From NCBI GenBank assembly GCA_009844885.1, contig VYAQ01000316.1, forward strand, positions 21,168-85,167: a stretch of DNA of 64,000 bases. The letters are read 5' to 3'. Within the stretch, counting starts at the first letter, position 1. Every line of letters begins with the position of its first letter. Shown here one piece after another: positions 2,107-53,699 of this stretch. The translations under genes and the position numbers were made by a program. Below the pieces are notes generated by a model that was not told the origin of the DNA, did no database searches, and saw nothing but the letters and a program-made list of their open reading frames with translations. Source of the stretch: Gemmatimonadota bacterium (lineage in GTDB: Bacteria; Gemmatimonadota; Gemmatimonadetes; Longimicrobiales; Gaopeijiaceae).

Positions 2107-2984
2107 GCCCCCGGTCTCCCGGGCTCGTGGAAGACCTTTCTGGGCTGAAGCACTCCGTCGCGAACCGCCCCGACCGCCACCAGCTGTTCGCCCGGCAGTA
2201 CGAAGATGGCCGCGCTTCGGTCGGGCACGTCCCCACGGATCCGCCTCCCGTCGGCCAGCTTCGCCGCCTCCTCGACACCGACATTTACCCGCGGCAGATG
2301 CGACAGGGCGGACACGGCCCCGACCCAGGCTTCCTGCCGCGGCTCTCCCGCCTCGACGGAAGCGAGCGATGCCGCGTGGCGCACATGGAGCGACCCGACC
2401 CGGGTCCGGCGCAGCTCCGCGAGGTGGCAGGACGTCCCCAGCCGCTTGCCGAACTCGACCGACAGCGACCGCACATAGGTGCCGCTGGAGCATGCAACCC
2501 GAACGAGCACCCGGGGCGGCACATAGTCGAGGATCTCGAAGCTGCCGAGCGTTATCTGCCGGGGACTGAGCACCACGCGCTCACCCCGGCGCGCGCGCCG
2601 GTGGGCCGGTACTCCGTCGACCTTCACCGCGGAGTACACGGGTGGCACCTGGCTCATGCGGCCGACCATTCCGGCCGCGGCCGCCTCCAGCTGCTCCCGC
2701 TTCAACGAGGTCCAGTTGTCGTCTTCGGCGATCCGCACGCCGTCGCGGTCGTGTGAATCGGTGGCCGCGCCGAGCCGGGCGGTCGCCCGGTAGGTCTTGT
2801 CAAATCCCACGAGGTACTCGAGCAGGCGGGTCGCCTTCCCCACCGCGAGCACGAGAAGCCCGGTGGCAAAGGGATCGAGCGTTCCCGCGTGACCAACCCT
2901 TCGCACACCCAGTCCCCGGCGCGCCGCTGCAACCACGTCGTGGGACGTGACCCCGGCCGGCTTGTCGACCAGAAGGAAACGCAT
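2103..2984 (-). CDS. truB: tRNA pseudouridine(55) synthase
   Basis: MRFLLVDKPAGVTSHDVVAAARRGLGVRRVGHAGTLDPFATGLLVLAVGKATRL contains the TruB catalytic-Asp motif GTLDP. An alternative TTG start at 3005 would give a TTGA overlap with the rbfA stop. Confidence 0.9.
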   Translation of the reverse strand: MRFLLVDKPAGVTSHDVVAAARRGLGVRRVGHAGTLDPFATGLLVLAVGKATRLLEYLVGFDKTYRATARLGAATDSHDRDGVRIAEDDNWTSLKREQLEAAAAGMVGRMSQVPPVYSAVKVDGVPAHRRARRGERVVLSPRQITLGSFEILDYVPPRVLVRVACSSGTYVRSLSVEFGKRLGTSCHLAELRRTRVGSLHVRHAASLASVEAGEPRQEAWVGAVSALSHLPRVNVGVEEAAKLADGRRIRGDVPDRSAAIFVLPGEQLVAVGAVRDGVLQPRKVFHEPGRPGA

Positions 2985-3001
2985 GGCACCCGGCACAGCC
3001 T

Positions 3002-3367
3002 TCAAGGTTCGTCCGGCCCGCCGCCGGGAGGCATCACATCGCGCAGTATGGCTTCGATCCGCCGACCGTCCTCGATCGTCGTATCACGCTGAAACCGCAG
3101 CTCGGGCACGCGCCGGATCCTGAGTTCGCGCCCGAGCACCGAACGCAGAAACGGCGCCGCGCGTCCGAGCGCCGCCAGAGTGCGGTCCTGTTGATCCAGC
3201 GAGCCGTGGAGTTCGACGTACACGCGGGCCAGCCACAGGTCCTCGGTCACATCCACCCCGGTAACCGTCAGCGACCCCACGTCGGGATCGCGAAGCTGGT
3301 ACTGGATTCTGGTCGACAGTTCCCGGCGAAGCTGCTCCCCCAGGCGTGAAAGACGCCGGCCGGACAT
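3002..3367 (-). CDS. rbfA: Ribosome-binding factor A
   Basis: Internal ATG 3367: MSGRRLSRLGEQLRRELSTRIQYQLRDPDVGSLTVTGVDVTEDLWLARVYV. The size (~121 aa) and position after infB are typical. The start overlaps the stop of the upstream DUF503 gene (TGATG). Confidence 0.88.
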   Translation of the reverse strand: MSGRRLSRLGEQLRRELSTRIQYQLRDPDVGSLTVTGVDVTEDLWLARVYVELHGSLDQQDRTLAALGRAAPFLRSVLGRELRIRRVPELRFQRDTTIEDGRRIEAILRDVMPPGGGPDEP

Positions 3368-3645
3368 CAGTACCGCTCGGTCGAGTTGGCAACCACCACC
3401 GCGCCCCTCGCGCCGGCCACGCGGCGGTCGACCGACTCCAGGATCGAATCGGCCTGCGCGGCGTGCGCCGCCAGGAAGGCCACCGAGATCCGGGCTTGAT
3501 TGCGCGCGTCCTGAAGTCCCGACTCGACGACCGACACGTTCATCCGCGCGAGCCTGTCCTTGAGCGAGCGCAGGACGGACCGTTTCTGCTTCAGCGAGGA
3601 CGACCCCGGCATGGACAGATCCCAGGTAGCCACTGTGACGACCAC
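3367..3645 (-). CDS. DUF503 (YlxP-like) protein
   Basis: GTG 3645: VVVTVATWDLSMPGSSSLKQKRSVLRSLKDRLARMNVSVVESGLQDARNQARISVAFLAAH. This resembles the DUF503 pattern (hLPgshSLKeKR..l+sl.d+l+..fnvSvaE) and sits in the conserved slot between infB and rbfA. The exact start is uncertain. Confidence 0.7.
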   Translation of the reverse strand: MVVTVATWDLSMPGSSSLKQKRSVLRSLKDRLARMNVSVVESGLQDARNQARISVAFLAAHAAQADSILESVDRRVAGARGAVVVANSTERY

Positions 3646-6470: not shown

Positions 6471-7816
6471 CAGGCCGGTCCACCCCCTCCGCCCGCTGGC
6501 TCCTCGCCGGAGCGAGCGGACTCCGAGTCGACCACGGTGAGGTCTTCGATCAGGGCGAGGAGCCGCGCTGCCGCGTCCTCGGTCACCCCGTCGACGGCCA
6601 GGAAATCCGCGCGGTCCAGGTCGATGATGTCGAGGAAGCTGTCGTAGCCGGCCGACGCCAGCGCGTTCAGCGTCGATGCGTCCAGCGAAAGCTCGCTCAG
6701 CGGGAAGTCGGCCGTTTCGTATGAATCCGCTTCTTCCTCCACGAACAGCGACATGTCGGCGCCGCGTTCCAGCCACTCGCGCGAGCCGTAGAGATCGATC
6801 TGCCATCCGATCAGCTGAGATGCCAGGCGCACGTTCTGCCCGTTCCTGCCGATTGCAAGCGAGAGCTGGTCCTCGTCGACGATGGCCGTGACGACCTGCC
6901 GCGCGGAATCCGAGACGACCTTTGCCACACGGGCCGGCGCCAGCGCCCGCCGTGCGAAAATCTCCGGGTCCGGATGCCAGGGCACGATGTCGATCCGCTC
7001 GCCACCCAATTCCGAAACCACGGCCTGCACCCTCGACCCCTTGAGACCCACGCAGGCCCCCACCGGATCGATGGATTCATCGCGGCTGTGTACAGCGATC
7101 TTGGTCCGGCCCCCGACCTCCCGGGTCAACTCCTTGATGTCGACGATCCCCTGCTGGATCTCGGGCACCTCCAGGTTGAACAGGGCGGCCACGAAGAGCG
7201 GGTCCGAGCGCGAGAAGATCAGACGGGGACCCTTTGGAGTCTCATCGACCTTCTTGAGCACGGCCCGTATGGATTCGCCCTGCCGGAAGCGTTCACGGGG
7301 GTTCTGCTCCTTCCACGGAATGATCGCCTCCGCCTCTCTGGTGCGGTTGAGAAGCAGGACGATCTTGCCGCGCTCGATCTGCTGTACCTCACCGGAGAGC
7401 AGGTCGCCGACCCGATCGGTGTACTCGTCACGGATACGCTGACGCTCGCCCTCGCGGACCAGCTGCACGATTCGCTGCTTGGCCGCCATGACGGCGTTGC
7501 GCCCGAACTCGGAGAAGTCCACGGGGATCTCCATAACGTCGCCGACCTCGTAGGTGGGATCGTCCCAGCGGGCCTCCTCGACGGAAATCTCCGACGACTC
7601 GTCCTCGACCGTTGCGACCACCCGCTTGAGCACCAGCATGTCGATCTCGCCCGTGCGCTGGTCCACATCGATCTCGGTGTCGACGTTGGCGCCGAATATC
7701 CGGGCCAGACCGGCGTGGATGGCCTCCTTGACCAGCACGTCCACCTCGTCGGAATCGAGGTCCTTCGCCTTGGCGATTGCACCGACCGCCTGACCGATCA
7801 GGGAGGAGTCCGTCAT
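6470..7816 (-). CDS. nusA: Transcription termination/antitermination factor NusA
   Basis: MTDSSLIGQAVGAIAKAKDLDSDEVDVLVKEAIHAGL, followed by S1 and two KH regions (GACVGLKGSRVQAVVSELGGERIDIV; LSLAIGRNGQNVRLASQL) and a C-terminal HhH-like acidic repeat. ATG 7816 forms an ATGA overlap with the rimP stop. Confidence 0.95.
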   Translation of the reverse strand: MTDSSLIGQAVGAIAKAKDLDSDEVDVLVKEAIHAGLARIFGANVDTEIDVDQRTGEIDMLVLKRVVATVEDESSEISVEEARWDDPTYEVGDVMEIPVDFSEFGRNAVMAAKQRIVQLVREGERQRIRDEYTDRVGDLLSGEVQQIERGKIVLLLNRTREAEAIIPWKEQNPRERFRQGESIRAVLKKVDETPKGPRLIFSRSDPLFVAALFNLEVPEIQQGIVDIKELTREVGGRTKIAVHSRDESIDPVGACVGLKGSRVQAVVSELGGERIDIVPWHPDPEIFARRALAPARVAKVVSDSARQVVTAIVDEDQLSLAIGRNGQNVRLASQLIGWQIDLYGSREWLERGADMSLFVEEEADSYETADFPLSELSLDASTLNALASAGYDSFLDIIDLDRADFLAVDGVTEDAAARLLALIEDLTVVDSESARSGEEPAGGGGGPA

Positions 7817-42410: not shown

Positions 42411-43142
42411 ATGGATCACGACTTTCCTTCGCGCAGAACGCCGTGGTTTGCGGGCAGCCTCCTCACTGCCGTCGCCGCAACCGTCCTGGCGTTCTGGGTG
42501 CCCGGCGGAGAGCTCCCGGGACAGCAGGTGGACCGGGGGCGCTTCCGACTGTTCCTGGACGGCTCGGAGATGGGAACGGAGGACTTCACGATCCAGCGGA
42601 TCGGTTCAGGAGAGGCCCAGGAGACGCTCGCACGCGGTGCAGTAAGAATGAACGATGGCCGTGTCGTCACGACGATCCTGCGGACCGTCGGTCCAGCCAT
42701 GGCGTTTTCCGAGTACGCCGCGATCGTCAGGGGCGCCGATACGCTCGAAGTTCGCGTCCTGAATGCGGGCGATCGACTGCGGCGAGTCACCGTCGCGCCA
42801 TGGGGCGAGGAGGAACAGGAGTTCAGGGCGAGCGCGCGAACGATGATCTTCGATGCCGGGGTCGCCCACCACTATTTCGTCATCGGCGGCTTCCTGGCGC
42901 GCGGGACCGCCGACATGACGCTCCACGCATTCGAACCACGATCCGAAAGGGAAGACTGGGCCGCGGATCTGGACATCGGGTCCGAGACCATCACGCTGCA
43001 GGGTGAGCAGGTGGAAGCGACCCGGGTGCGGATCGTGTCCGGCGATCAGGTCCGGACGGTGTGGTTCGACGGGAGCGGCAGGCTCGTGCGGGTGGAGGTG
43101 CCGACGGACGGCTTCGTCGCGCAAAGGGAATACGGGGGTTGA
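42411..43142 (+). CDS. Hypothetical secreted protein
   Basis: 243-aa ORF with a signal-like N-terminus (RRTPWFAGSLLTAVAATVLAFWVPG) and a beta-rich composition. No SD; ATG in an AT-rich context. Confidence 0.5.
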   Translation: MDHDFPSRRTPWFAGSLLTAVAATVLAFWVPGGELPGQQVDRGRFRLFLDGSEMGTEDFTIQRIGSGEAQETLARGAVRMNDGRVVTTILRTVGPAMAFSEYAAIVRGADTLEVRVLNAGDRLRRVTVAPWGEEEQEFRASARTMIFDAGVAHHYFVIGGFLARGTADMTLHAFEPRSEREDWAADLDIGSETITLQGEQVEATRVRIVSGDQVRTVWFDGSGRLVRVEVPTDGFVAQREYGG

Positions 43143-43254
43143 ACCAAACGGGCACCTGAGCCGTAGACCGAAACTGGAAGCGTGCCGACCGCGTATGGGG
43201 TTCGGCGCGTGCAGGATCCCTGCCAGGGGTCCCGATGAGACGAGGGAGGAGATC

Positions 43255-44784
43255 GTGGTGGACAAGCGGATGGTGTTCCGGGCCGGATGGCCGGCGTGGA
43301 TTCTCGTGGCTCTCGTGGCGGGTACCGCCTTTGCGTCGCCCTTGCGCGCGCAGGACAGGCTTTCCGCCTCGCTGACCCTGGAGGAGGCGCTCCGGGTGGC
43401 GCTGCGCAACAACCCCGGCGTGCAGGCGGTCCGGAACGACCTGCAGGTCGCAAACTGGAACCTGACCTCGGCCTATGGCTCCTGGCTCCCCTCGGCTTCG
43501 CTGAGTTCTTCCCTCTCCTGGCAGGGGGCGGGCGAACAGCGGTTCGGGAGCATCACCGCCGATCAGCTCGGCTTTCAGGATCAGCCCTCCTTCCTGTTCA
43601 GCTCGTACAACGCCGGCGTGAACTTCTCGATGGACGGGCGCAAGCTGATGGCTCCCGGCCAGGCCCGCAGATCGCGCGACGCCACGCAGGCGCAGATCCG
43701 CAGCACCGAGGCAGCGCTCCGTCTGGGGGTTACGAAGGCATACCTCGAGGTGTTGCGCCAGGGTGAGGGTCTGACGCTTGCCGAGCAGGAACTCGAGCGG
43801 GCCCGGATCAATCTGCGGCTCGCCCAGGGACGCCAGGAGGTGGGATCCGGCAACGCCATCGACGTCAGGCAGGCGGAAGTGAACGTGGGCCGCGCGGAAG
43901 TCACCCTGATCCAGTCGCGCACCGGCGTGCAGACGTCCCGAATACGGCTCCTTCAGCAGATCGGTGTGGACCTGAACGCCGAGCCGACACTGGCGACGAC
44001 GTTTTCGGTGACCCAGCCGGAATGGACGCCCGGGGATCTCTATCAGGCGGCGATCGGCAACAACCCCGATCTTCAGGCGATGCGGGCGCAGGAGGAAGCC
44101 TCCCGCTACGACGTGAGCATCGCCCGCTCATCCTACTTCCCCAGCCTGTCCGTGTCGGCGGGCTGGAGCGGTTTCACCCGGCAGGCCAGCAGCACCGCCG
44201 GCCAGGAGGCGCAGGCGATCGCCGCCGGGACGGCCAGGGTGCAGCAGTGCCTGGCGCTGAACGACCTCGTCTCACTCCTTCCGAACCCTCCGGTGCCCCA
44301 GGATTGCAGCCTCCTGGCGACTCCCGAGTCCGCGATCGAGGCCATCCGGGCCGAGAATCAGGCGTTTCCGTTCAACTTCACCAGCCAGCCGCCCTCGGTT
44401 GGCCTGCAGGTCTCGATCCCGATATTCCAGGGGCTTGGCCGCCAGAGGGAGCTGGAGAGCGCCCGTGCCCAGTTGAACGACAACCGGTTCCGTATCCGGG
44501 AGCAGGAGCTGGCCTTGCGCGCGGATATCGAGTCGAGCGTCGCGCTGGTCCGCACCGCCTACGAGAGCGCCCTTATCGAGGAGCGCAATCAGGCGCTGGC
44601 CGACGAGCAATTGCGCCTGGCGCAGGAACGATACCGCCTGGGGTTTTCCAACTTCATCGATCTGGTGGAAGCGGAGACGGTGAAGGCGCGAGCCGACCGG
44701 GAGCGTATCGTGGCGATATTCATCTATCACGACGCAGTCGCCGACCTCGAAGCGGTCGTCGGCATGCCTCTAAGGAATCCATAA
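43255..44784 (+). CDS. TolC-family outer-membrane efflux protein
   Basis: GTG 43255 lies 5 nt after GGGAGGAG (alternative ATG 43270). Signal peptide WILVALVAGTAFASPLRA-QD. OEP repeats LTLEEALRVALRNNPGVQAVRNDLQVA and LYQAAIGNNPDLQAMRAQEEA. Confidence 0.85.
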   Translation: MVDKRMVFRAGWPAWILVALVAGTAFASPLRAQDRLSASLTLEEALRVALRNNPGVQAVRNDLQVANWNLTSAYGSWLPSASLSSSLSWQGAGEQRFGSITADQLGFQDQPSFLFSSYNAGVNFSMDGRKLMAPGQARRSRDATQAQIRSTEAALRLGVTKAYLEVLRQGEGLTLAEQELERARINLRLAQGRQEVGSGNAIDVRQAEVNVGRAEVTLIQSRTGVQTSRIRLLQQIGVDLNAEPTLATTFSVTQPEWTPGDLYQAAIGNNPDLQAMRAQEEASRYDVSIARSSYFPSLSVSAGWSGFTRQASSTAGQEAQAIAAGTARVQQCLALNDLVSLLPNPPVPQDCSLLATPESAIEAIRAENQAFPFNFTSQPPSVGLQVSIPIFQGLGRQRELESARAQLNDNRFRIREQELALRADIESSVALVRTAYESALIEERNQALADEQLRLAQERYRLGFSNFIDLVEAETVKARADRERIVAIFIYHDAVADLEAVVGMPLRNP

Positions 44785-44791
44785 GAACGAC

Positions 44792-46063
44792 ATGAGAACC
44801 AGAACCAAGGTGATGATCGGGACCGGGATCGCGGTCCTGCTGGTCCTGGCCGCCGGGCTGAGCATGAACGGCCGGCGCCAACAGGGAATCGAGGTCCGGA
44901 TCGAGACCGTTGACAGGCGCGACCTGGTGGCGACCGTCACGGCCAGCGGCAACGTCCGCGCGCGCCGAAAGGTGGATATCAGTTCGGACATCTCCGCGCG
45001 AGTGGCGGAGCTGCTGGTGGACGAAGGCGAGGACGTGGAGGAAGGACAGGTGCTGCTGCGCCTCGACCCCACGCGCTACCAGGCGGCGGTCAACCGCAGC
45101 CGGGCGAATCTCAGCCAGTCACAGGCCCAGGTGGCGCAGGCACGAGCGAACTACCTGCGCGCGGAGAGGGAAGCGGAACGCCTCGACTCGCTGCACGCCC
45201 GCGAGCCGTTGCTGGTAAGCCGGCAGGAGGTCGACAACGCGCAGACCGACCTGGAAGTCCAGCGGTCCCTCCTCGAGTCTTCGGAATTCGGGGTCAACCA
45301 GGCCCGGGCCGCCCTCGAAGAGGCTAGCGACCAGCTCGCCAAGACCATCATCACCGCACCCATGGCGGGCCGGGTTACCCGTCTCAACGTCGAAGAGGGC
45401 GAGACGGTGATCGTCGGCACGATGAACAACCCGGGCAGCCTGGTGCTGACGGTATCGGATCTCTCCGTGATGGAAGTCGTCCTCGAAGTGGACGAGACCG
45501 ATGTGCCCGAGATCACCCTGGGCGATAGCGCCACAGTCGAGCTGGACGCGTTCCCGGATCTGGATTTCCCGGGGGTCGTCACCGAGATCGGCAACAGCGC
45601 CATCCGTCCGCCGTCGCAGGCCGCCGGCACGGGACAGACGCCGACCATCGACTTCGAGGTGGTCGTGACCCTCGACAGTCCGGAGGTCGAGCTGCGCCCG
45701 GATCTCTCCGCCACCGCCGAACTGATCACCGAGACACGCGTCGATCAGTTGAGCATTCCGATCATCGCGCTTACCCTGCGCGAACCGGACGCCGAGGACG
45801 ACGACGAGCGCGCGGGCGACGGCGACGGCGAAGTGCCCGATCCGATCGAGGGAGTCTTTGTGATCCGGGATGGCGAGGTCACCTTCACGCCGGTCGCGGT
45901 CGGAATCGCCGGCCAGGAGTATTTCGAGGTGATCTCCGGGCTGTCGCTCGGGGACTCGGTCGTCAGCGGACCCTATCAGGTCGTCCGAACCCTGGAGGAC
46001 GGAGATCAGGTTCGGGCGGACGAGAGCGACGATGCGGACGACACGCGGGACGAGCAGGGTTGA
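44792..46063 (+). CDS. Efflux periplasmic adaptor (HlyD/MacA-type membrane fusion protein)
   Basis: N-terminal TM helix, a coiled-coil hairpin, lipoyl/beta-barrel motifs (VDISSDISARVAELLVDEGEDVEEGQVLLRLD; ITAPMAGRVTRLNVEEGETV) and an acidic C-terminal tail. Confidence 0.88.
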   Translation: MRTRTKVMIGTGIAVLLVLAAGLSMNGRRQQGIEVRIETVDRRDLVATVTASGNVRARRKVDISSDISARVAELLVDEGEDVEEGQVLLRLDPTRYQAAVNRSRANLSQSQAQVAQARANYLRAEREAERLDSLHAREPLLVSRQEVDNAQTDLEVQRSLLESSEFGVNQARAALEEASDQLAKTIITAPMAGRVTRLNVEEGETVIVGTMNNPGSLVLTVSDLSVMEVVLEVDETDVPEITLGDSATVELDAFPDLDFPGVVTEIGNSAIRPPSQAAGTGQTPTIDFEVVVTLDSPEVELRPDLSATAELITETRVDQLSIPIIALTLREPDAEDDDERAGDGDGEVPDPIEGVFVIRDGEVTFTPVAVGIAGQEYFEVISGLSLGDSVVSGPYQVVRTLEDGDQVRADESDDADDTRDEQG

Positions 46064-46095
46064 CCGTGACACTTCGCAACAATCGAGTCGTCTGA

Positions 46096-47337
46096 ATGCA
46101 GTTCCTCGAGGGCGTGCGCCTGGCCTGGGAGCAGATCCGCACCCAGAAGCTGAAGAGCTTCTTCACCCTGCTGGGTGTGATCGTGGGCGTGATGTTCCTC
46201 ATCCTCGTGGTGAGCATCGTGGAGGGAACGGACCGCTACATCCGCGGCACCCTCACCGAAAGGGTCATGGGCGTGAACACCGTCCGGGTGGGCAGGATGC
46301 CCAGAGAGGCGGTGGATCCCTCGCCCGAGCAGTGGAGGGCATGGGCCCGTGCGCCGCGATTGACCTTCGACGACCTGGAGTATCTTCGCGACAGGATCAC
46401 GCTGTCGGCGACGATCGGAGCACAGTCCGATGCCGGAGGGGAGCTCGAATCGGACACCGGGCTCAAGGTCGAGAACGTGAACATCGTTGGTGCGTCGGCG
46501 GAGATCTTCGAGATCCGCAACTGGAATGTCGAACGCGGCCGGGCGTACACAAGGCATGAGGCCGACCAGGGCGCGCCCGTGGTTGTTCTGGGCAAGGCCA
46601 CGGCCGAGGTCCTCTTCGAAGGTCTCGATCCGGTCGGCAGGACGGTGCGGCTTCGCGGCTTTCCCTTCCGGGTCGTGGGCGTTCTGGAGGAGCAGGGATC
46701 GTTTCTGATCGTTTCCCTGGACAACCTGGCTATCGCTCCGGCGCGCTCGCCGGTTCAGAGATTCGTCAATCCGCACGGCATCGTAGACGAGATCATCATC
46801 AAGGCCGATGCCCCCGAACTGGTCCTGCCCATCCATCAGGAGACCGTCGAGGCCATGCGCCTGAGACGCCGGCTGAGACCCGCGGACCTGGACAATTTCG
46901 CCGCCGAGACTACGGAATCCTCCCTGGCCTTCTGGGACAATATCAGTCAGGTCCTGTTCCTTGCTCTGCCCGGGCTGGTCGGCATCTCGCTTGTCGTGGG
47001 CGGAATTGTGATCATGAACATCATGCTGGTATCGGTAATGGAGAGGACGCGGGAGATCGGCATTCGCAAGGCCATTGGCGCCCGTCGCGGCGATGTCCTG
47101 GTCCAGGTCCTCATCGAGAGCGCCACCCTCTCGGCCGTCGGTGCCGCGATCGGGGTGGGCATCGGAATCGGCCTGACCATCCTGCTGGGTGCGCTGACCC
47201 CCCTGCCGGCGGCCGTAGCTCCCAAGTGGATGGCCCTCGGCGTCGCACTCGGCGTCGGCGTGGGCGTGGCCTCGGGCGTGTATCCGGCCTCCCGCGCGGC
47301 CAGACTCGACCCTGTGGACGCGCTGAGGTACGAATGA
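46096..47337 (+). CDS. MacB-type ABC transporter permease (MacB_PCD + FtsX), no fused ATPase
   Basis: Starts directly with TM1 (LKSFFTLLGVIVGVMFLILVVSIVEG), followed by a large periplasmic domain and the FtsX motif ERTREIGIRKAIGARRGDVLVQVLIESA. Ends LDPVDALRYE. Confidence 0.9.
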   Translation: MQFLEGVRLAWEQIRTQKLKSFFTLLGVIVGVMFLILVVSIVEGTDRYIRGTLTERVMGVNTVRVGRMPREAVDPSPEQWRAWARAPRLTFDDLEYLRDRITLSATIGAQSDAGGELESDTGLKVENVNIVGASAEIFEIRNWNVERGRAYTRHEADQGAPVVVLGKATAEVLFEGLDPVGRTVRLRGFPFRVVGVLEEQGSFLIVSLDNLAIAPARSPVQRFVNPHGIVDEIIIKADAPELVLPIHQETVEAMRLRRRLRPADLDNFAAETTESSLAFWDNISQVLFLALPGLVGISLVVGGIVIMNIMLVSVMERTREIGIRKAIGARRGDVLVQVLIESATLSAVGAAIGVGIGIGLTILLGALTPLPAAVAPKWMALGVALGVGVGVASGVYPASRAARLDPVDALRYE

Positions 47338-48650
47338 CCCGGCGAGGCGGGAGCGGAGCCAGTGCGCCGAACGGAAAGCCGGCAGCACCCGGTCACGTGC
47401 TGAGCGAGAGCGTCCGCGTAGCCTTCGACGCACTGCGGGCCAACTGGATGCGGACGACACTGGCAGTGTTGGGTGTAGGAATCGGGGTCGGCGTCGTCGT
47501 CACCGTAGCCGCGATGGTGAGCGGAATCCGCCGCGAGGTCATGGAGATTTTCGAGGCGTCCGTGCCGGGCAGCTTCACGCTCATGCCTTTCGACTTCACC
47601 AACGTCCGGATCGCCGCCGATGGCTCGGGGCGACCGCCGTGGTGGGATCGGCCCGAGATCAGCAACCGGGAGATCCGAAGGGTTCAGACTCTGCCCGGGG
47701 TGGCGGAAGCCAACGCCAGGTATGAATTCGGTGCGACGATGCGTTATGAGTCGGACTGGGTCCGGGGAATCCAGTGGGTCGGCAACTCGAGCGGATGGGC
47801 GACTTTTACCGGAGGGGATTTCATCGCGGGCAGGGACTTCACTCCCGCCGAGGTCGCCCAGGCCAGAGGCGTGGTCGTGGTATCGGAAGAGCTGGCGGAA
47901 ACGGTCTTCGGAGAGCTGGATCCGATTGGAAAACGCGTGCGCGTCAATGCGGGCCGGAGAGCGGCAAACGAGCAGTTCACCGTAGTCGGGGTCTTCAGGC
48001 CCATCGACAATCTCTTCGGCGAGGTTGCGGGCAACTTCGCGGTGGTGCCCTTCACCGCGGCGGACAAGCGGCTCAAGGCCCGTACGCGGTGGAACTTCAT
48101 GATGGTCCAGGTCGCCCCTCGGGACGACGTGGAAACGAGCGAGGTCGAAGACCAGGTCGTTTCGGCGCTCCGCTCGATGCGGGGACTCGGACCCGCCGAC
48201 GAGAACAACTTCGCCGTCATCCGCAGCGAGCAGATCATAGACCTGTTCAACCAGTTCACGGCCATGTTCTTCATGGTGATGGTGGCGCTTTCCTCGATCG
48301 GCATGCTTGTGGGTGGGATCGGCGTGGTCGGGATCATGCTCATTTCCGTCACGGAGCGCACGCGGGAAATCGGCATCCGCAAGGCCATCGGGGCGACCCG
48401 CCGCGAGATCAAGTCGCAATTCCTGATCGAAGCGTCGCTTCTCACCGCTGCCGGGGGGGCAGCCGGGCTCCTGGTCGGATGGGGAGCCTCCGAACTGCTC
48501 GCCGCGCTCACACCCCTGCCTGCGCGGATTCCGATCTGGTCGGTGTTTGCCGCCCTCTCCGTGGCCGCCCTCACCGGGATTCTCTTCGGACTGCTCCCGG
48601 CTCTGCGTGCCTCCAAGCTGGACCCCGTCGACGCCCTCAGATACGAGTGA
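47334..48650 (+). CDS. MacB-type ABC transporter permease, second paralogue
   Basis: ATG 47334 forms an ATGA overlap with the preceding stop. Same architecture (ERTREIGIRKAIGATRREIKSQFLIEAS...LDPVDALRYE). The track ORF 47226.. is over-extended. Confidence 0.9.
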   Translation: MTRRGGSGASAPNGKPAAPGHVLSESVRVAFDALRANWMRTTLAVLGVGIGVGVVVTVAAMVSGIRREVMEIFEASVPGSFTLMPFDFTNVRIAADGSGRPPWWDRPEISNREIRRVQTLPGVAEANARYEFGATMRYESDWVRGIQWVGNSSGWATFTGGDFIAGRDFTPAEVAQARGVVVVSEELAETVFGELDPIGKRVRVNAGRRAANEQFTVVGVFRPIDNLFGEVAGNFAVVPFTAADKRLKARTRWNFMMVQVAPRDDVETSEVEDQVVSALRSMRGLGPADENNFAVIRSEQIIDLFNQFTAMFFMVMVALSSIGMLVGGIGVVGIMLISVTERTREIGIRKAIGATRREIKSQFLIEASLLTAAGGAAGLLVGWGASELLAALTPLPARIPIWSVFAALSVAALTGILFGLLPALRASKLDPVDALRYE

Positions 48651-49372
48651 GCGGGCCGCTCGATGTTCTCGCGGTCATGGCGCACCCGGATGACGCCGAG
48701 ATCTTCTGCGGCGGATCGCTGATCAAATCCGCGGACGCCGGACAGCGTACAGGCGTACTCGACCTGTCCGCCGGCGAAATGGGGTCGCGCGGCACCCGGG
48801 AGTCGCGGGCTTCAGAAGCCGCCACGGCCGCCGAGATCATGGGTCTTGCGGTACGCCGCTGCGCCGGTCTCCCCGATGCCGGGCTGTTCAACGACCTGCG
48901 CTCCCGGCACGTGGTCGCAGAGATGATCCGTGCGCTACGGCCACGAACCATCGTGACTCACTGGACCCGGGGACGTCACCCTGACCACCGTGCCGCCGCG
49001 GAACTCGCCCGGGATGCTTCCTTCCTGTCAGGGTTGCGAAACCTGCCCATCGAAGGCGAACCCTATCGTCCCCGGAAGATCGTCTATGCGCTTTCCTTCC
49101 GGGAGGATCCGGTCAAACCGACGTTCGCCGTGGACATTACGGATCAGATGGACCGCAAGATCGAGGCGCTGTCGGCCTACGGTACGCAGTTTCACGGCAA
49201 GAGCGGTATGGGCGAGGTGTTCCCGGCCGGTGACCGTCCCTTCTTCGAACAGGTCCGCAGCGTTCACGCCACCTACGGGTCGCTGATCCGCCGCCGCTAC
49301 GCCGAGATCTTCTGGACCGAAGAAATCGTCGAGAAGGAAACGCTGGGAGACCTCGGGGTCAGCACTTTCTAG
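48647..49372 (+). CDS. bshB1: PIG-L/LmbE-family N-acetylglucosaminyl deacetylase, BshB1-like
   Basis: GTG 48647 (GTGA overlap with the permease stop): LDVLAVMAHPDDAEIFCGGSLIKSADAGQRTGVLDLSAGEMGSRGT...HPDH. The AHPDD, DL-x-GE-x-G-x-x-G and HPDH motifs are typical of bacillithiol deacetylase BshB1. The 532-aa track ORF is over-extended. Confidence 0.78.
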   Translation: MSGPLDVLAVMAHPDDAEIFCGGSLIKSADAGQRTGVLDLSAGEMGSRGTRESRASEAATAAEIMGLAVRRCAGLPDAGLFNDLRSRHVVAEMIRALRPRTIVTHWTRGRHPDHRAAAELARDASFLSGLRNLPIEGEPYRPRKIVYALSFREDPVKPTFAVDITDQMDRKIEALSAYGTQFHGKSGMGEVFPAGDRPFFEQVRSVHATYGSLIRRRYAEIFWTEEIVEKETLGDLGVSTF

Positions 49373-49375
49373 CGG

Positions 49376-49396
49376 CCAGCACGGATTCGGTGCTGG
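49376..49396 (+). terminator. Small hairpin just after the bshB1 stop
   Basis: CCAGCAC-ggattcg-GTGCTGG (7-bp stem, 7-nt loop), 4 nt after TAG. No T-run follows. Confidence 0.3.
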
Positions 49397-49464
49397 ACTT
49401 CGCGCTCTGTCCGGTACGCGGGCGCTGGATCCGGCAGGGCACAACGACAAGCGGCCCATGAACG

Positions 49465-49497
49465 CCGGCGGGCTCCTCACCGTGAGGAGCCCGCCGG
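49465..49497. terminator. 33-nt perfect palindrome; likely bidirectional terminator between convergent operons
   Basis: CCGGCGGGCTCCTCAC C GTGAGGAGCCCGCCGG. The arms are 16 nt each, giving an effective stem of ~14 bp. It sits midway between the bshB1 stop (49372) and the stop of the last mini-protein gene (49545). No U-tract on either strand. Confidence 0.55.
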
Positions 49498-49544
49498 ATA
49501 CAACCGCCGTCACCGAGACGGCGTTTCCATCCCTGCCGCGCGGG

Positions 49545-49793
49545 TCACATCATCGGACCCGGTGGCGCGAACATGTCGCAGCAGTAGGGCGAGCCGACCA
49601 TACAGCGTATCGGCAGGCACAGGACCCAGGTCCCGAACTGTACCCTCCAGCGATCGTTCTCAACCGCAGCCGCAGCAGCAGCCGCGTGTTCTCCCGTCCC
49701 GGGCGCCGAGACCAGCAGTGCCGCCGCGACCGCGGCGACCTTCACGCTTCTGGCCAAAGTTGCCCCCAGGCGCTCCATCGTTTTGCCTTGCAT
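49545..49793 (-). CDS. Cys-rich secreted mini-protein, paralogue C (82 aa; C-x4-C-x6-CC)
   Basis: ATG 49793 with AAGGA 7 nt upstream: MQGKTMERLGATLARSVKVAAVAAALLVSAPGTGEHAAAAAAAVENDRWRVQFGTWVLCLPIRCMVGSPYCCDMFAPPGPMM. Signal-peptide-like N-terminus. Paralogous to the two upstream ORFs. Confidence 0.6.
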   Translation of the reverse strand: MQGKTMERLGATLARSVKVAAVAAALLVSAPGTGEHAAAAAAAVENDRWRVQFGTWVLCLPIRCMVGSPYCCDMFAPPGPMM

Positions 49794-49838
49794 GATGTCA
49801 TCCTTCTGCGGGAACAATCCCGCCGTTTGCCTTCGTGC

Positions 49839-50087
49839 TCAGAACAGGACGGGACCGCAACAGGTCGGGGCTCCGCCACATGCATAGTCGGTGCAGAACT
49901 TCCATCCGTTAAACCCGATAACCAGTTTGTGGGGCCCCGACTGCGCGCTCGCCATAGTCTCGACCAGCACGCCGCCGTCCGGTAGCGCCGGCGCGACCGC
50001 TGTCAGCGCCGCGACCAGACCCAACGCCTTCACGCCCGCGCGAATGCCCCTCGCGCGGCCTGCAACTCTTCCGAATGTCTTTTGCAT
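49839..50087 (-). CDS. Cys-rich secreted mini-protein, paralogue B (82 aa; C-x4-C-x5-CC)
   Basis: ATG 50087 with GGGAG 7 nt upstream, 17 nt after the paralogue A stop: MQKTFGRVAGRARGIRAGVKALGLVAALTAVAPALPDGGVLVETMASAQSGPHKLVIGFNGWKFCTDYACGGAPTCCGPVLF. The track start at 50150 would overlap paralogue A. Confidence 0.6.
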   Translation of the reverse strand: MQKTFGRVAGRARGIRAGVKALGLVAALTAVAPALPDGGVLVETMASAQSGPHKLVIGFNGWKFCTDYACGGAPTCCGPVLF

Positions 50088-50104
50088 TTCCTCTCTCCCT
50101 CTTG

Positions 50105-50347
50105 TTAGAAGCGCGGATTGTCGTAACAACACCAACCGTACCCCGGGCAACTACCCCAACAGATACCAATCTTCCCAAGCCAGAACACCTGTTCGCGCAC
50201 ATGGCGACTTGCCTCGGCTCCGGCCCCAACGGGCGTTGCCTGAACCCCCACAGCCGGTGCACCCACCGAGAACGCGACTGCCGCGCCCATGACCGCGGCG
50301 CGCATCAACGAGGCGCGGCGCGAAAGACGTCTTCTGCCTTTCTTCAT
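50105..50347 (-). CDS. Cys-rich secreted mini-protein, paralogue A (80 aa; C-x3-C-x5-CC)
   Basis: ATG 50347 with GGAG 7 nt upstream: MKKGRRRLSRRASLMRAAVMGAAVAFSVGAPAVGVQATPVGAGAEASRHVREQVFWLGKIGICWGSCPGYGWCCYDNPRF. Strongly basic n-region (RR-containing) followed by a hydrophobic h-region. TAA stop. Confidence 0.65.
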   Translation of the reverse strand: MKKGRRRLSRRASLMRAAVMGAAVAFSVGAPAVGVQATPVGAGAEASRHVREQVFWLGKIGICWGSCPGYGWCCYDNPRF

Positions 50348-50380
50348 TTTGGAACTCCATTCCTTTCAAGTGTCAAAGTC

Positions 50381-50409
50381 GAGTCGAGGAGCGTCCGCGT
50401 CCTCGACTC
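50381..50409 (-). promoter_or_regulatory. 10-bp stem-loop overlapping the stop codon of the thioredoxin-like gene, upstream of the mini-protein genes
   Basis: GAGTCGAGGA (50381..50390) and TCCTCGACTC (50400..50409) are exact reverse complements around a 9-nt loop. The TGA stop at 50410..50408 overlaps the 5' arm on the mRNA. Only a UUU follows the hairpin. Confidence 0.4.
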
Positions 50410-50968
50410 ATCGTACTGCGTCCATCGCAAGGCTCTGGACGAACCCTGCCAGATCGAGCGAATCCCCCGCCGAACGCCAGATCTCGGCCTCGCTTGCCGG
50501 CACCACCGCTTCGATCACCCCGGCCTCGTTCGTGATGTAGAACAGAGTCGGCTCCGCTCGTCCGAACGCTCGGACGTAGTCGGATCGGCTGCGCACGTCG
50601 ATTCTTGCCGAAATCCGCTGAGAACCGAGAAACCCCGCAACCAGATCGCGGTCCGCGTCGCCGTTCTCGCCCACCGCCACTGCGACCACCTCGAACTGCT
50701 CGCCCAACCGATACTGGAGGGCACGCACCGTCCTGGCAGGATCGGTGAGCGTGCACCCCAGGCACTCCCGGGCGTCGAATACCCACACCAGCGCCGGACC
50801 GCGTCCAGGGAACTCAAGACCCGGCATGGCGTCGCCGACGCCGGGGACACGGCCGTCCCGCGGCGAACATCCGGCAGCCATCCAGGCAAGAAGGAGCGTG
50901 GCTGCAGCCCGGTGCAGGGCGAATGCAGTCGAGCAGATGCGGCGGCGGCGTCCGACTGACCACCTCAT
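50408..50968 (-). CDS. Thioredoxin-fold CxxC protein, probable periplasmic lipoprotein (TlpA/redoxin-like)
   Basis: ATG 50968 forms an ATGA overlap with the propeller stop. MRWSVGRRRRICSTAFALHRAAATLLLAWMAAGC-SPRDG (signal plus lipobox-like Cys). Beta-strand ALVWVFDAR followed by ECLGC (CxxC). A later cis-Pro-type segment reads AEPTLFYITNEAGVIEAV. Length 186 aa. Confidence 0.7.
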   Translation of the reverse strand: MRWSVGRRRRICSTAFALHRAAATLLLAWMAAGCSPRDGRVPGVGDAMPGLEFPGRGPALVWVFDARECLGCTLTDPARTVRALQYRLGEQFEVVAVAVGENGDADRDLVAGFLGSQRISARIDVRSRSDYVRAFGRAEPTLFYITNEAGVIEAVVPASEAEIWRSAGDSLDLAGFVQSLAMDAVR

Positions 50969-52116
50969 GGCTCGAGACCACCCTTCCAACGCGCCACAAG
51001 CCACCGATTCGGCAGCACCGACGCGGGATCATCGAAGTAGAAGAGCCCCTGCTCCACGGCCAACAGCTGCGGCATGTTGGGCGCACCCAGCAGTTGCTGC
51101 CCCGTCCGGTCGATGATCAGCAGATCCCATACGGCATCCGTACCTCGCGACTGCATGGACGTCACCACCAGGTTGCCGTCATCAAGAACGGACACCCGTA
51201 CCACCTGGGTGAACCGGTCAAACGGGTCAGCGCCAGCGTCGGCATCGGGGACGGTCTCCCCGGCCCTCGGGAGGGTGCCCATGGGTCTCACCATCGGAAG
51301 AGGGATTTCCTTCAGGCGATCCCCCTGGCGGCTGAACTTGTAGAGGGTGTCCGACAGGGCCCACCCCGCCCAGATCGTATCCGCCTCCAGCGCAGCGAAG
51401 GTACCCTGAAACGTGAGTGCGTAGCCGAGGGATTCCTCCGGCACCCCCATGGGGAGAAAACTGCGCTCGAGGTCCCCCGTGCGGCGGTTCCAGATGTGCA
51501 GAAGCGTCGGTGCCCCCTCGGACTGCAGCATCCCGGTCAGCAGATACCGATCTTCGCCCAGATCCAGGGCTCCCTGCACCGTAGTGATCGGAGACATTAC
51601 GATTTCCGGATCCTCCCCGGAGGCCGGAAAAAAGGTCAGCCGGGCAAGCTGCAGGTCGGCCACCACGATGCCGCCATCCAGTGTTCGGTGGGCCGTAAGG
51701 GGGAGCCGAAACTCTCCCGGCCCCTGCCCTCGGCCACCCACAACGCGCTGCAGACGCCCGTCGCTGCCATAGACGTTGACCTGGCCCTCCATCGGCTCCG
51801 CCAGCAGGAAGGTGCCGTCCCCCCCGAGAGTGACCATCGGCTGTACTGTCATGGCCTGGTCGGTCTCTTCCAGCTCAAGCTCGAGGACCACTTCGAACGC
51901 CTCGTTGAAGGCGGCCATGTCCACCAACTCCGAAGACGCGGCGGGATCGGATGCGGGCGGAGGAGGATCGGTATCGGCCGTGTCGCAGGCCGACGCAACA
52001 AGGACCAGGAGGAGACCGAGGACCTGGCCAGGGATGGTGTAGGGCTCGCCCTTGTGGCGGGCGGCGCAACAGGATCGGGTCTTCTGGCGGTTCCGGCGGT
52101 TCTCCGGCGTGAGCAT
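50965..52116 (-). CDS. Six-bladed beta-propeller (NHL-like) lipoprotein
   Basis: ATG 52116 with GGAGGGAG 8 nt upstream. Signal plus lipobox-like GQVLGLLLVLVASAC-DTAD. Repeated blade-like segments (DGTFLLAEP..GQVNVYGSDGRLQRVVGGRGQGPGEFRLP; DGGIVVADL; DRYLLTG; DGNLVVTS; LLIIDRTGQ). The track ORF start at 52236 is over-extended. Confidence 0.72.
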   Translation of the reverse strand: MLTPENRRNRQKTRSCCAARHKGEPYTIPGQVLGLLLVLVASACDTADTDPPPPASDPAASSELVDMAAFNEAFEVVLELELEETDQAMTVQPMVTLGGDGTFLLAEPMEGQVNVYGSDGRLQRVVGGRGQGPGEFRLPLTAHRTLDGGIVVADLQLARLTFFPASGEDPEIVMSPITTVQGALDLGEDRYLLTGMLQSEGAPTLLHIWNRRTGDLERSFLPMGVPEESLGYALTFQGTFAALEADTIWAGWALSDTLYKFSRQGDRLKEIPLPMVRPMGTLPRAGETVPDADAGADPFDRFTQVVRVSVLDDGNLVVTSMQSRGTDAVWDLLIIDRTGQQLLGAPNMPQLLAVEQGLFYFDDPASVLPNRWLVARWKGGLEP

Positions 52117-52304
52117 TGTTGCCGCTCCCTCCGTTCGAGGTATGGGGTGTCGGGTCGCAACCGTCCGCACCCCTCGTGGCCTGCGGGAGAGTCCCTCAGG
52201 GGTGGGCGGGTGCGTTTCGGCGTGACCCAAGATCACCCGGCCTGTGGGTCAAGGGGATAGCTGGATGGGACAATCGACCGCAAAGCCCGTTACAGAGGTC
52301 CCGA

Positions 52305-52324
52305 AAGGGGCCCAGGCGCCCCTT
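52305..52324 (-). terminator. Possible terminator after the phosphomannomutase gene
   Basis: The minus strand reads AAGGGGC-GCCTGG-GCCCCTT followed by TCGGG. A 7-bp stem and 6-nt loop begin 4 nt after the TGA at 52331..52329. This would separate the nuo/pmm transcript from the propeller operon. Confidence 0.4.
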
Positions 52325-52328
52325 CACC

Positions 52329-53699
52329 TCAGATGTGCACCCCCTCCTGGCGGAGCCAGTCCTCCATCGTCGCCCGGATCTGCCGCAGACGCTTCGCGCT
52401 CGATGCCTCGAATCGCGCCACGATCACGGGTTGCGTGTTCGAAGCACGGATCAGACCCCATCCGTCACCGAACTGTACGCGCACACCGTCGACGGCAACC
52501 ACGTCGTAGCGGTTGCTGAAATACCGCACGGCACGCTCCACCAGCGGGAACTTGACGTCCTCGGGGACCTCCAAGCGTAGTTCCGGGGTCGCAACATAGG
52601 CGGGCAGCGCGCCGACGATCCGCGATAGTGGCCGGTCGGCGTCGGCGATCAGGGCCGCGAGTCGGCCCGCGGCATACATGGCATCGTCGAAGCCGTAGTA
52701 GTCGTCCGCAAAGCAGACGTGCCCGGAGAGTTCTCCGGCGATCAGCGCACCGGTCTCTCTCATTTTCTCCTTGATGAGCGAGTGACCGGTCTTCCACATC
52801 AGCGGCTCGCCCCCGGCCCGCGCGAACTCCTCGGGAAGGACCTGTGAACACTTCACGTCGAAGACCAGGCGTTGCCCGGTCCCTCTGCGTTGCAGGATAT
52901 CCAGGCCGAAGAGCAGGAGGAGGATGTCGCCCCGAACGACGCGCCCCCGGTCGTCCACCACGCCGATGCGGTCCGCGTCGCCGTCGAAGCCGATGCCCGC
53001 ATCGGCCTCGTGCCTTCGCACCTCGGCGATCAGGTCCTGAACATGCTCGTCGACTGTCGGGTCCGGATGGTGGTTGGGAAAGGTCCCGTCCGACTCGCAG
53101 TACAGAGGAATCACTTCCAGACCGATGGCTTCCAGCAACTGTGGCGCGACGACCGAACCCGTGCCGTTGCCGCAGTCGACGACGACCTTCAGCGGACGTG
53201 ACAACCGGAAGCGGGCGGACACGTCGGCCACGTAGGCAGGGAGTGGATCGACATCCTCGACGGACCCTGTCCCGACGGCCAGATCGCGCTCCAGAATGCG
53301 ACGCCGCAGGCGCTGGATGCCGTCGCCGTGCGTGGACGCCTTGCCCATGGTCATCTTGATGCCGTTGTACTCCGGCGGATTGTGAGAGCCGGTGATCTGT
53401 ATGGCTCCGTCCGTCCCGAACCGGTATTCGCTGAAATAGGTGACGGGGGTCGGGACCGTGCCCAGCTGAAGGACGCTGCATCCGGCTGATCTCAGGCCCC
53501 GCACCAGGCTGGCCGCCAAGCCCGGGGACGAGGGTCGGTTGTCTTCCCCCACGGCAACGCGCGGCGCCTCACCGGGCAGCCGCGAGCGCAGTTCGGAACC
53601 GTAAGCCCTGCCGACAGCGTCCGCGACCGCAGAAGTCAGATCCTCGCCCACGACGCCCCGGATGTCGTACTGCCGGAAGATGTGCTCGGACAGCTGCAT
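52329..53699 (-). CDS. Phosphomannomutase/phosphoglucomutase
   Basis: FRQYDIRGVVGEDL...IQITGSHNPPEYNGIKM (phospho-Ser loop)...GFDGDADRIGVVD (Mg site)...GELSGH. Confidence 0.9.
   Translation of the reverse strand: MQLSEHIFRQYDIRGVVGEDLTSAVADAVGRAYGSELRSRLPGEAPRVAVGEDNRPSSPGLAASLVRGLRSAGCSVLQLGTVPTPVTYFSEYRFGTDGAIQITGSHNPPEYNGIKMTMGKASTHGDGIQRLRRRILERDLAVGTGSVEDVDPLPAYVADVSARFRLSRPLKVVVDCGNGTGSVVAPQLLEAIGLEVIPLYCESDGTFPNHHPDPTVDEHVQDLIAEVRRHEADAGIGFDGDADRIGVVDDRGRVVRGDILLLLFGLDILQRRGTGQRLVFDVKCSQVLPEEFARAGGEPLMWKTGHSLIKEKMRETGALIAGELSGHVCFADDYYGFDDAMYAAGRLAALIADADRPLSRIVGALPAYVATPELRLEVPEDVKFPLVERAVRYFSNRYDVVAVDGVRVQFGDGWGLIRASNTQPVIVARFEASSAKRLRQIRATMEDWLRQEGVHI

Follow-up and report, generated by a model that had tools for sequence, protein, structure and literature searches.

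A propeller lipoprotein, a CxxC redoxin and small four-cysteine proteins encoded together in Longimicrobiales: a candidate split thioredoxin-NHL redox module

We analysed a 64,000-nucleotide (nt) window (the whole stretch of DNA under study) from a Gemmatimonadota bacterium of the order Longimicrobiales (assembly GCA_009844885.1, contig VYAQ01000316.1, positions 21,168 to 85,167 of the forward strand). Our subject is a run of five minus-strand genes within it, encoding a beta-propeller lipoprotein, a thioredoxin-fold lipoprotein with a CxxC motif (the redoxin) and three small cysteine-rich proteins (mini-proteins P1, P2 and P3). Here and in related loci, the module consists of two predicted lipoproteins from translationally coupled genes, accompanied by one to three small four-Cys proteins. 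Its features, in window coordinates, are as follows.

50965..52116, minus strand: propeller gene, 383 codons; open reading frame (ORF) and sequence read directly.
50408..50968, minus strand: redoxin gene, 186 codons; ORF and sequence read directly.
50105..50347, minus strand: mini-protein P1 gene, 80 codons; the product ends ...ICWGSCPGYGWCCYDNPRF.
49839..50087, minus strand: mini-protein P2 gene, 82 codons; the product ends ...ASAQSGPHKLVIGFNGWKFCTDYACGGAPTCCGPVLF.
49545..49793, minus strand: mini-protein P3 gene, 82 codons; the product ends ...VENDRWRVQFGTWVLCLPIRCMVGSPYCCDMFAPPGPMM.
49465..49497, minus strand: hairpin found by folding, with a perfect 15-bp GC-rich stem, 48 nt past the P3 stop.
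52304..52325, minus strand: weaker hairpin found by folding, directly after the stop codon of pmm.

A first-pass annotation of this DNA had proposed the five genes as a single operon-like unit, and direct reading of the ORFs confirmed all five at these coordinates. The same reading recovered the details that it had listed: a Shine-Dalgarno sequence (GGAGGGAG) 8 nt before the propeller ATG, an ATGA overlap of the propeller stop with the redoxin start at 50965-50968, gaps of 17 nt between P1 and P2 and of 45 nt between P2 and P3, and GGAG, GGGAG and AAGGA each 7 nt 5' of the ATGs of P1, P2 and P3, respectively. The gap between the redoxin gene and P1 is 60 nt. The stop/start overlap, the kept gene order and the survival of the propeller-redoxin-peptide triad through rearrangements, described below, support the view that the genes form a linked unit.

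The propeller protein has the signal/lipobox-like N-terminus and the GxGPGEF blade motif that had been noticed initially, in the form of LVASAC and GRGQGPGEF. In its AlphaFold2 model (predicted local distance difference test score, pLDDT, 81), residues 1-61 are disordered and the propeller spans approximately residues 62-380; on this model, the disordered segment is a predicted lipoprotein tether. We identified 111 propeller homologues, nearly all from Gemmatimonadota metagenome-assembled genomes (MAGs). A profile built from 26 homologues matched the NHL domains of TRIM2, TRIM3, TRIM71, Thin and Brat (E 2e-30 to 3e-9), via a blade at residues 100-179, and also matched BF0058 of Bacteroides fragilis (PDB 4raa; E 7.9e-4). 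The best Foldseek matches of the model were the NHL domains of Brat and TRIM2 (template modelling score, TMt, 0.67-0.74), followed by 4raa (E 1.1e-10, TM 0.54/0.58) and DUF4221 (3s9j), with virginiamycin B lyase among the weaker matches (TM ~0.44-0.55). Homologue profile and structure search thus agree with the NHL-like character first assigned to the protein, and indicate a six-bladed NHL fold. The short NHL model of Pfam was not reported for the window propeller in our Pfam scan. Against Pfam DUF5128 (PF17170), the window propeller scores 15.9 bits (E 0.0076; gathering cut-off 22.9 bits), 17 of 26 close family members match at E<0.01 (best 3.4e-6), and more distant Longimicrobiales propeller paralogues exceed the cut-off, at 27-30 bits. 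Judged by these matches, the protein is a predicted NHL-type propeller and a divergent relative of DUF5128; it resembles the DUF5128 protein BF0058 (4raa) in propeller type and in its exported or lipoprotein N-terminus, but its score lies below the Pfam cut-off. In the library searched, no paper contained 'NVEALA', and none of the matches listed dealt with DUF5128, PF17170 or DUF4221. Nine propeller residues are invariant among the homologues: E83, E84, E110, D154, R159, H207, W209, D246 and D256.

The redoxin has a lipobox-like MAAGC and an ECLGC that contains an active-site-like C69-L-G-C72. Its AlphaFold2 model (pLDDT 81.6) has the topology beta-CxxC-alpha-beta-alpha-beta-alpha-beta-beta-alpha, which is that of a thioredoxin fold, and Foldseek matched it to YkuV (2b5x), SdbA (5um7), ResA, DsbE, CcmG and TlpA-like proteins (E 1.7e-5 to 1e-3). 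These matches, the topology and the invariant CxxC bear out the thioredoxin fold that had been proposed from short hallmarks. By sequence, the protein scored 16.2 bits against Pfam Thioredoxin_2 (cut-off 27) and had no match in NCBIfam, its profile reached only E 0.17 or worse against PDB sequences, and none of its 28 homologues carried a precomputed Pfam match. Invariant in the family are the lipobox Cys (C34) together with C69, L70, G71 and C72, and the motif reads CL[G/T]C in all 14 loci matched by a motif scan. The helix after the CxxC (L-x-D-P-A-R-x-V-R-x-L-Q) is strikingly conserved. The cis-Pro-like element of the first-pass annotation (EPTLFY) is present in the window redoxin but is not kept across the family: a Pro precedes beta3 in the window protein and many relatives (P-T-L-F-Y, P-A-F-Y), and Thr-Gly, Leu-Ala or other residues stand there in two subclades. 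The redoxin is thus like TlpA, ResA, CcmG, DsbE, SdbA and YkuV in its thioredoxin fold, in a CxxC that starts helix 1 and in membrane anchoring outside the cytoplasm, but unlike them in its very divergent sequence, in having no Pro in the CL[G/T]C dipeptide, in a cis-Pro that is not universal and in the unusual conservation of the post-CxxC helix.

Each of P1, P2 and P3 contains exactly four Cys, as had been counted before. The three are paralogous (21-34% identical to one another), with M1, Pro31 and a C-x3-4-C-x5-6-CC tail in common; across the family the Cys spacing is variable (x3 or x4, then x4 to x7). All follow one design. The n-region is basic, and the Ala/Val/Leu h-region after it runs for 12-15 residues up to an invariant Pro. 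Next comes a variable linker (12-20 residues), in many members with A-x-A(Q/S/V) at its end, and the tail of ~30-40 residues consists of an aromatic-rich, alternating (strand-like) segment and then the four invariant Cys. The A-x-A(Q/S/V) site is frequent 20-25 residues before the first Cys. Judged by eye, the h-region resembles that of a Sec signal peptide and does not appear long enough to form a stable transmembrane helix. P1, with N-terminal RRxSLM, and its orthologues P0112-P0134 and P0178 have a twin-arginine-like motif (RRASLM, RRAWLM, RRCWLK; RRxWL(M/K)) resembling the Tat consensus, and the P2 and P3 clades are without it; the export route may differ between the paralogues.

We found no match for P1-P3 in Pfam (E<=1), NCBIfam or PADLOC; across all five proteins, these three libraries yielded nothing beyond the sub-threshold DUF5128 and Thioredoxin_2 matches given above. 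Searching 29 family members against Pfam gave only single-member chance matches (E>=0.15), and the family profile found nothing better than E 2.5 among PDB sequences. The NVEALA family (Pfam PF14055) was likewise absent, with no model match for P1-P3 or the 29 family members and no motif in the sequences. The first-pass statement that the peptides are not recognised as members of any named family agrees with the outcome in these four resources, where the search for a characterised family to which they might belong gave none. In contrast to these nulls, the family profile matches its own members with E-values down to 1e-29. A profile search of 5.8 billion proteins recovered 38 members, and HMMER, run exhaustively on 1.84 billion cluster representatives, recovered only 26 clusters at E<=1e-3, whose members are all 71-99 residues long, share the same design and are annotated at source as 'hypothetical protein'. 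On the strength of these searches, we regard the predicted family as real, narrow and unnamed. Four-Cys mini-protein genes flanking a propeller and a redoxin gene are uncalled in the NCBI MAG records of two of the loci that we fetched, L092 (3406-3903 and 5804-6106) and L093 (1378-1875 and 3776-4078), where the redoxin gene call is N-terminally truncated (L092) or absent (L093). The family is under-annotated, and its genes, of 70-100 codons, are missed by some pipelines.

A scan of species-representative genomes placed the closest propeller relatives in Longimicrobiales (93% identity in L001, 91% in L004); sample and bin names suggest that many close relatives are sponge-derived. The scan of the genome collection used two peptide patterns and kept the best 80 loci, such that the distribution reported here is a lower bound. 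Using tblastn with the five window proteins, we observed the order propeller-redoxin-peptide(s) in L001-L004, with three peptides each, and in L006 and L008, with one peptide each and propellers 55% and 43% identical to that of the window. Down to this 43% propeller identity, the small ORFs keep their frame, length, start context and four Cys. P1 has orthologues in L001-L004, and the P2 frame, length and four Cys are kept down to 42% identity. The small ORFs are hence intact in relatives that keep the propeller and redoxin genes.

Most family members lie at one chromosomal site, between pmm and the PIG-L/MacB genes. Outside it, we observed peptide-propeller-redoxin on a contig beside two phage-integrase genes (L085), redoxin (with CLTC)-peptide-propeller-peptide (L088/L089), and peptide-propeller-redoxin-peptide near an integrase (L092/L093). 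The triad is therefore kept in at least four gene orders, three of them outside the canonical site and two of these beside integrases. Where the order is rearranged, no gene other than those of the triad is called between its members, indicating that the module is self-contained, and retention of the triad through the rearrangements argues for a functional unit rather than inherited synteny. On two short contigs, the redoxin stop overlaps the peptide start (L083) and the propeller stop overlaps the peptide start (L084, from a Tara Oceans sample). When all ORFs in the fetched loci were searched with the peptide profile (hmmsearch), 36 matched, every one of which adjoins a propeller gene (36/36). 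The recurrent co-occurrence of peptide with propeller and CxxC redoxin, predicted by the first-pass annotation, was thus looked for and found.

One genome has, in addition to its canonical copy, a second, degenerate copy of the module (L005, 1-7100). Its peptide gene is intact (5689-5913), and its propeller gene occupies two frames (5929-6912 and 6666-7061), a frameshift that could be a long-read assembly error. There is no redoxin gene; an unrelated ORF of 438 codons follows, and direct repeats 3.4 kb apart, resembling those of an insertion sequence (IS), lie upstream.

We estimated the ratio of non-synonymous to synonymous substitution rates (dN/dS) for each gene by the pairwise Nei-Gojobori method. 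The values come from short pairwise alignments, with dS near saturation in some pairs, and are as follows.

Propeller: dN/dS 0.18-0.21.
Redoxin: dN/dS 0.26-0.36.
P1: dN/dS 0.16-0.49.
P2: dN/dS 0.59-0.95.
P3: dN/dS 0.35-0.60.

All values are below 1, consistent with the expectation of purifying selection on the small ORFs, and because of them we consider the mini-proteins to be coding and under purifying but relaxed selection. Values pooled by region were alike in the signal, linker and Cys-core (0.33-0.60 in every region), and we therefore rejected positive selection in the mini-protein core. Compared with the propeller, the mini-proteins evolve at 2-4 times the rate, and a module carries between one and three of them; the fast rate and variable copy number fit clients or effectors rather than core enzymes.

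We propose that the module is a split, membrane-anchored redox machine of a thioredoxin and an NHL propeller that would bind its own Sec-exported mini-protein clients and process their thiols and disulfides; its architecture would be analogous to that of known proteins that combine these domains. We hold this reading to be possible, though somewhat short of probable. The mini-proteins would be exported by Sec and probably cleaved to peptides of ~30-45 residues. In the periplasm, the propeller would capture them as a substrate-binding platform, and the CxxC redoxin beside it would carry out thiol-disulfide exchange on the four Cys, in the simplest case by making two disulfides or rearranging them. 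This would yield small peptides, locked by disulfides, that act in the envelope or outside the cell; in sponge-associated Longimicrobiales they might, for example, serve in antagonism, in signalling or in interaction with the host. Exit from the periplasm might occur via the neighbouring MacB-type tripartite pump, which is a speculative step.

The analogy is to NHLRC2 and SOQ1, in which a TlpA-like thioredoxin domain is fused to a six-bladed NHL domain, with the redox motif in the inter-domain cleft (PMC6107167; 10.1101/2021.03.16.435614). The NHL domain and conserved surface of these proteins have been read as a partner-binding platform, and SOQ1, which is lumenal (extracytoplasmic), requires both its Cys pair and a key NHL residue (PMC6107167; 10.1101/2021.03.16.435614). 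The module pairs the same two folds. However, NHLRC2 and SOQ1 are each one chain, whereas the module has two separate lipoproteins from ATGA-overlapping genes; their motif is CC(I/V)NC, in contrast to CL[G/T]C in the redoxin; and their nDsbD-like C-terminal domain is lacking in the module proteins. The module also encodes candidate clients alongside, whereas bacterial NHLRC2 homologues have no conserved gene neighbours (PMC6107167). Neither NHLRC2 nor SOQ1 was among the PDB profile matches of the propeller or its top 50 Foldseek matches, and the resemblance is architectural only. That the propeller and redoxin are a split bacterial counterpart of NHLRC2/SOQ1, with the mini-proteins as encoded clients, we consider doubtful. 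In a stronger variant of this doubtful reading, the propeller itself would be a new peptide-modifying enzyme, defining a class like the ribosomally synthesized and post-translationally modified peptides (RiPPs) but matured wholly in the periplasm.

Several observations weigh against a redox machine that acts on its own exported clients. TlpA-like proteins are usually reductants rather than oxidases. From the alignment, the canonical cis-Pro appears to be missing from two redoxin subclades, and in P2 and P3 the residues immediately following the invariant Pro make poor (-3,-1) sites. The adjacency to MacB genes is lost in rearranged loci, so it may be mere synteny. By the searches above, NHLRC2 and SOQ1 appear to be analogues, and not detectable homologues, of the propeller. 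A solitary propeller paralogue with 44% identity occurs with neither peptide nor redoxin (L094/L095, 1147-3802), in a variable region that holds a RelB/YafQ toxin-antitoxin pair and a helix-turn-helix gene with a peptidase M78 (ImmA/IrrE-like) gene. Lastly, the NHLRC2 thioredoxin domain is without insulin-reductase activity (PMC6107167). As to the opposite direction of chemistry, SdbA is a TlpA-fold enzyme that acts as an oxidase of secreted proteins (PMC5112981). We had also considered SdbA as a precedent for bacteriocin folding and rejected it, since the sdbA mutant loses its bacteriocin only indirectly, through a CiaRH stress effect (PMC5112981).

The proposal that the mini-proteins are redox clients belongs to a known kind of system. 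The sunA-bdbA-bdbB genes of sublancin 168 cluster a peptide gene with its own thioredoxin-like oxidoreductase, and the module is like sublancin-type loci in this respect. Unlike sublancin 168, it has no ABC-peptidase exporter, glycosyltransferase, DsbB-like partner or double-glycine leader, and has a propeller instead. The first-pass annotation had reported that no known RiPP or bacteriocin machinery accompanies the peptides, and we found none in the module in any arrangement: radical SAM, LanB/C/M, YcaO and C39-peptidase ABC exporter domains were absent from the precomputed Pfam matches of called genes in the fetched loci and from a Pfam scan of the window flanks, and no GG-type leader motif occurs in the mini-proteins. 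With no GG leader and no class-defining enzyme or exporter in the cluster, we rejected assignment to double-glycine bacteriocins or to a known RiPP class. What is new here is the propeller partner and the peptide family; what is of a known kind is the dedicated redox maturation or partnering of small exported Cys-rich proteins.

Four other explanations bear on the same observations. The mini-proteins could be secreted antimicrobial or effector peptides that the redoxin folds, with the propeller as an immunity or resistance factor that either binds or enzymatically inactivates them. We consider this unlikely, although much of the data would suit it: the small peptide tails are rich in aromatic residues, could form disulfides and have hydrophobic and basic strands in alternation, the peptides diverge fast and vary in copy number, extra module copies lie beside integrases or IS-like repeats, and the taxonomic range is narrow. 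Propeller enzymes that inactivate peptide antibiotics also exist, and one of them, virginiamycin B lyase, is a weak Foldseek match. Against this explanation, the dN/dS of 0.3-0.6 in all regions gives no sign of diversifying selection in the core, one propeller serves up to three peptides that are only 21-34% identical to one another, and the module is without a dedicated outer-membrane export or lysis gene.

Strict co-occurrence and overlapping genes would also fit a stable hetero-oligomeric periplasmic complex, with the mini-proteins serving the propeller as small disulfide-rich subunits or as regulators and the redoxin acting as the factor that assembles them. Methylamine dehydrogenase provides the analogy. 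Its mau cluster encodes MauB, a seven-bladed propeller heavy chain, MauD, a thioredoxin-like assembly factor, and MauA, a Cys-rich light chain with tryptophan tryptophylquinone (TTQ). As in that cluster, the module combines genes for a periplasmic propeller, a thioredoxin-like factor and a small protein rich in disulfides, all components are predicted to be extracytoplasmic, and the invariant acidic, aromatic and His residues of the propeller could form a binding or active site. The differences are considerable, in that MauB is seven-bladed, MauA is larger and carries the TTQ cofactor, and the module has no genes of the MauE/G type. The module propeller and mini-proteins gave no match to the Pfam amine dehydrogenase heavy and light chains, and by this comparison with MauB and MauA we do not count the module as a mau system. 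A complex of this kind is also hard to reconcile with 1 to 3 peptides per propeller, with peptides that diverge much faster than the propeller, with the absence of any Pfam match to amine dehydrogenase chains or to a cofactor-biogenesis gene, and with the absence of a radical-SAM or haem protein in any arrangement. We therefore regard it as distinctly unlikely.

A role in metal binding or redox buffering, in which the four Cys bind Cu, Zn or Fe or buffer thiols and the TlpA-like redoxin keeps them reduced, seems very unlikely. It would match the typical activity of TlpA-family enzymes, which reduce CxxxC-type metal-site cysteines; TlpA, according to a reference cited in PMC6107167, reduces ScoI/CoxB before metallation. 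A CxxxC is indeed present in P1 and in the L005, L006 and L008 peptide types, and a gene for a bacillithiol-type PIG-L deacetylase is a conserved convergent neighbour. The family-wide spacing of the Cys (x3 or x4, then x4 to x7) is variable, however, the rest of the mini-protein sequence is hypervariable and without conserved His, Met, Asp or Glu ligands, paralogue number varies, and the PIG-L adjacency is absent from rearranged loci.

Finally, it is extremely improbable that there is no system at all, with the small ORFs being spurious high-GC frames or 3' untranslated sequence in a neighbourhood of inherited synteny: the genome is GC-rich and full of spurious ORFs, pairwise dN/dS of P2 reaches 0.95 and the canonical locus is syntenic in most genomes, but the conservation of frame, length, start context and four Cys down to 43% propeller identity, profile E-values that reach 1e-29, a triad kept in four gene orders and three non-syntenic contexts, and the calling of the small ORFs as genes in independent assemblies effectively refute this explanation.

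If the split thioredoxin-NHL reading were true, the genome would, for the first time, show directly which substrates a Trx-NHL machine acts on. The large DUF5128 propeller family would gain an initial functional lead, namely the binding or processing of small exported peptides, and the mini-proteins would be a new family of small exported peptides, rich in disulfides, from a bacterial order that is uncultured and for the most part sponge-associated. With its three parts, the module would also be a minimal genetic recipe, open to transfer into a laboratory host, and, by analogy, would make what Trx+NHL proteins bind and do (NHLRC2 in FINCA disease, SOQ1 in photoprotection) more tractable. The co-occurrence would then also offer a first contextual clue to DUF5128-type propellers, which are abundant in Bacteroidota and Gemmatimonadota.

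The surroundings of the module in the window are as follows. Upstream, on the same strand, a Pfam scan of the flanking genes identified nuoN and phosphomannomutase (pmm). On the other side lies a convergent plus-strand operon (43003-49372) that encodes an OEP protein, an HlyD-type adaptor, two MacB_PCD/FtsX permeases and a BshB-like deacetylase of the PIG-L/LmbE type; we saw no ATPase domain fused to the permeases. This pump/PIG-L operon adjoins the module in all canonical loci but not in rearranged loci. The earlier view that no exporter lies nearby therefore needs qualification: there is no RiPP or bacteriocin exporter in the module, but the neighbouring 'efflux operon' is a MacB-type tripartite pump, and a small disulfide peptide is a known cargo of this pump class. 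That peptide is STII (STb) of E. coli, which is exported by Sec, acquires two disulfides in the periplasm and exits via MacAB-TolC (PMC5985334). The module is like the STII system in having a small precursor with Sec-type export and, at the canonical site, an adjoining OEP-MFP-MacB-MacB operon. The mini-proteins have no sequence similarity to STII, however, STII uses the housekeeping DsbA and no propeller, and the STII-like pump adjacency is not kept in rearranged loci.

The hairpins that had been said to bracket the locus both fold, at 49465-49497 and approximately 52304-52325, but neither carries a T-run. The former has a dG of -34.3 kcal/mol (z -3.87), with 0 of 200 shuffled sequences folding equally well, and probably ends transcripts arriving from both directions, those of the module and those of the convergent PIG-L gene. 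For the latter, the dG is -20 kcal/mol (z -1.8), with equally good folds in 13 of 200 shuffles; it marks the upstream boundary of the module. Terminator-like sites were no more numerous than in shuffled sequence, and a consensus scan found no promoters. An Rfam scan of 48500-53000 returned only a sub-threshold match to a eukaryotic internal ribosome entry site, whose 17 bits we attribute to chance.

We made further observations on propellers and small peptides in other fetched loci. Just 5' of its peptide-propeller-redoxin-peptide module, L092 has two plus-strand ORFs (1301-1711 and 2906-3547). An ORF ending ...ELSESELEAVAGGADDEDRCWITCILWSCIGTDIDADDGE has a Nif11/NHLP-like double-glycine leader and a Cys/Ser/Thr-rich core, resembling a lanthipeptide-type precursor, and a membrane protein with an HELGH metalloprotease motif comes after it. 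A Rhodohalobacter sp. locus (L014, 5776-8188) has a tandem pair of genes for propeller lipoproteins of the same broad family, the second of which appears to occupy two frames; neither is accompanied by a small Cys-rich ORF. We had looked at this Bacteroidota-like locus for small peptide genes of the kind in the NVEALA neighbourhood, which the first-pass annotation had named as a distant contextual analogue, but, with no obvious gene of this kind present, it speaks neither for nor against that analogy.

Three Longimicrobiales loci (L047, 10881-11664; L052, 8-960; L009, 2820-4995) have, at a distance of a few kb from propeller paralogues of the DUF5128 type, members of a second family of Cys-rich small exported proteins that is unrelated to the first; its pattern is CC-x7-9-CC-x2-CC-W/Y-...-DC (for example MRATVIALILLNVLLAIV...DCCQMQGPDPICCFECCWLTNDCDTHADCSDA). 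Modules with Cys-rich mini-proteins thus seem to be a recurring feature of the propeller-rich regions in these genomes. We considered a link between the window redoxin and the single-Cys redoxin-like proteins found near these other Cys-rich peptides, and discarded it on an hhalign probability of only 10%. In L047 and L052, the second-family gene follows the gene for such a single-Cys protein (DPDC[VQ][HY]T) and precedes a membrane protein gene, and the two single-Cys proteins are 46% identical over a 70-residue stretch. An extracytoplasmic function (ECF) sigma factor gene adjoins the second family in L009 and L052.

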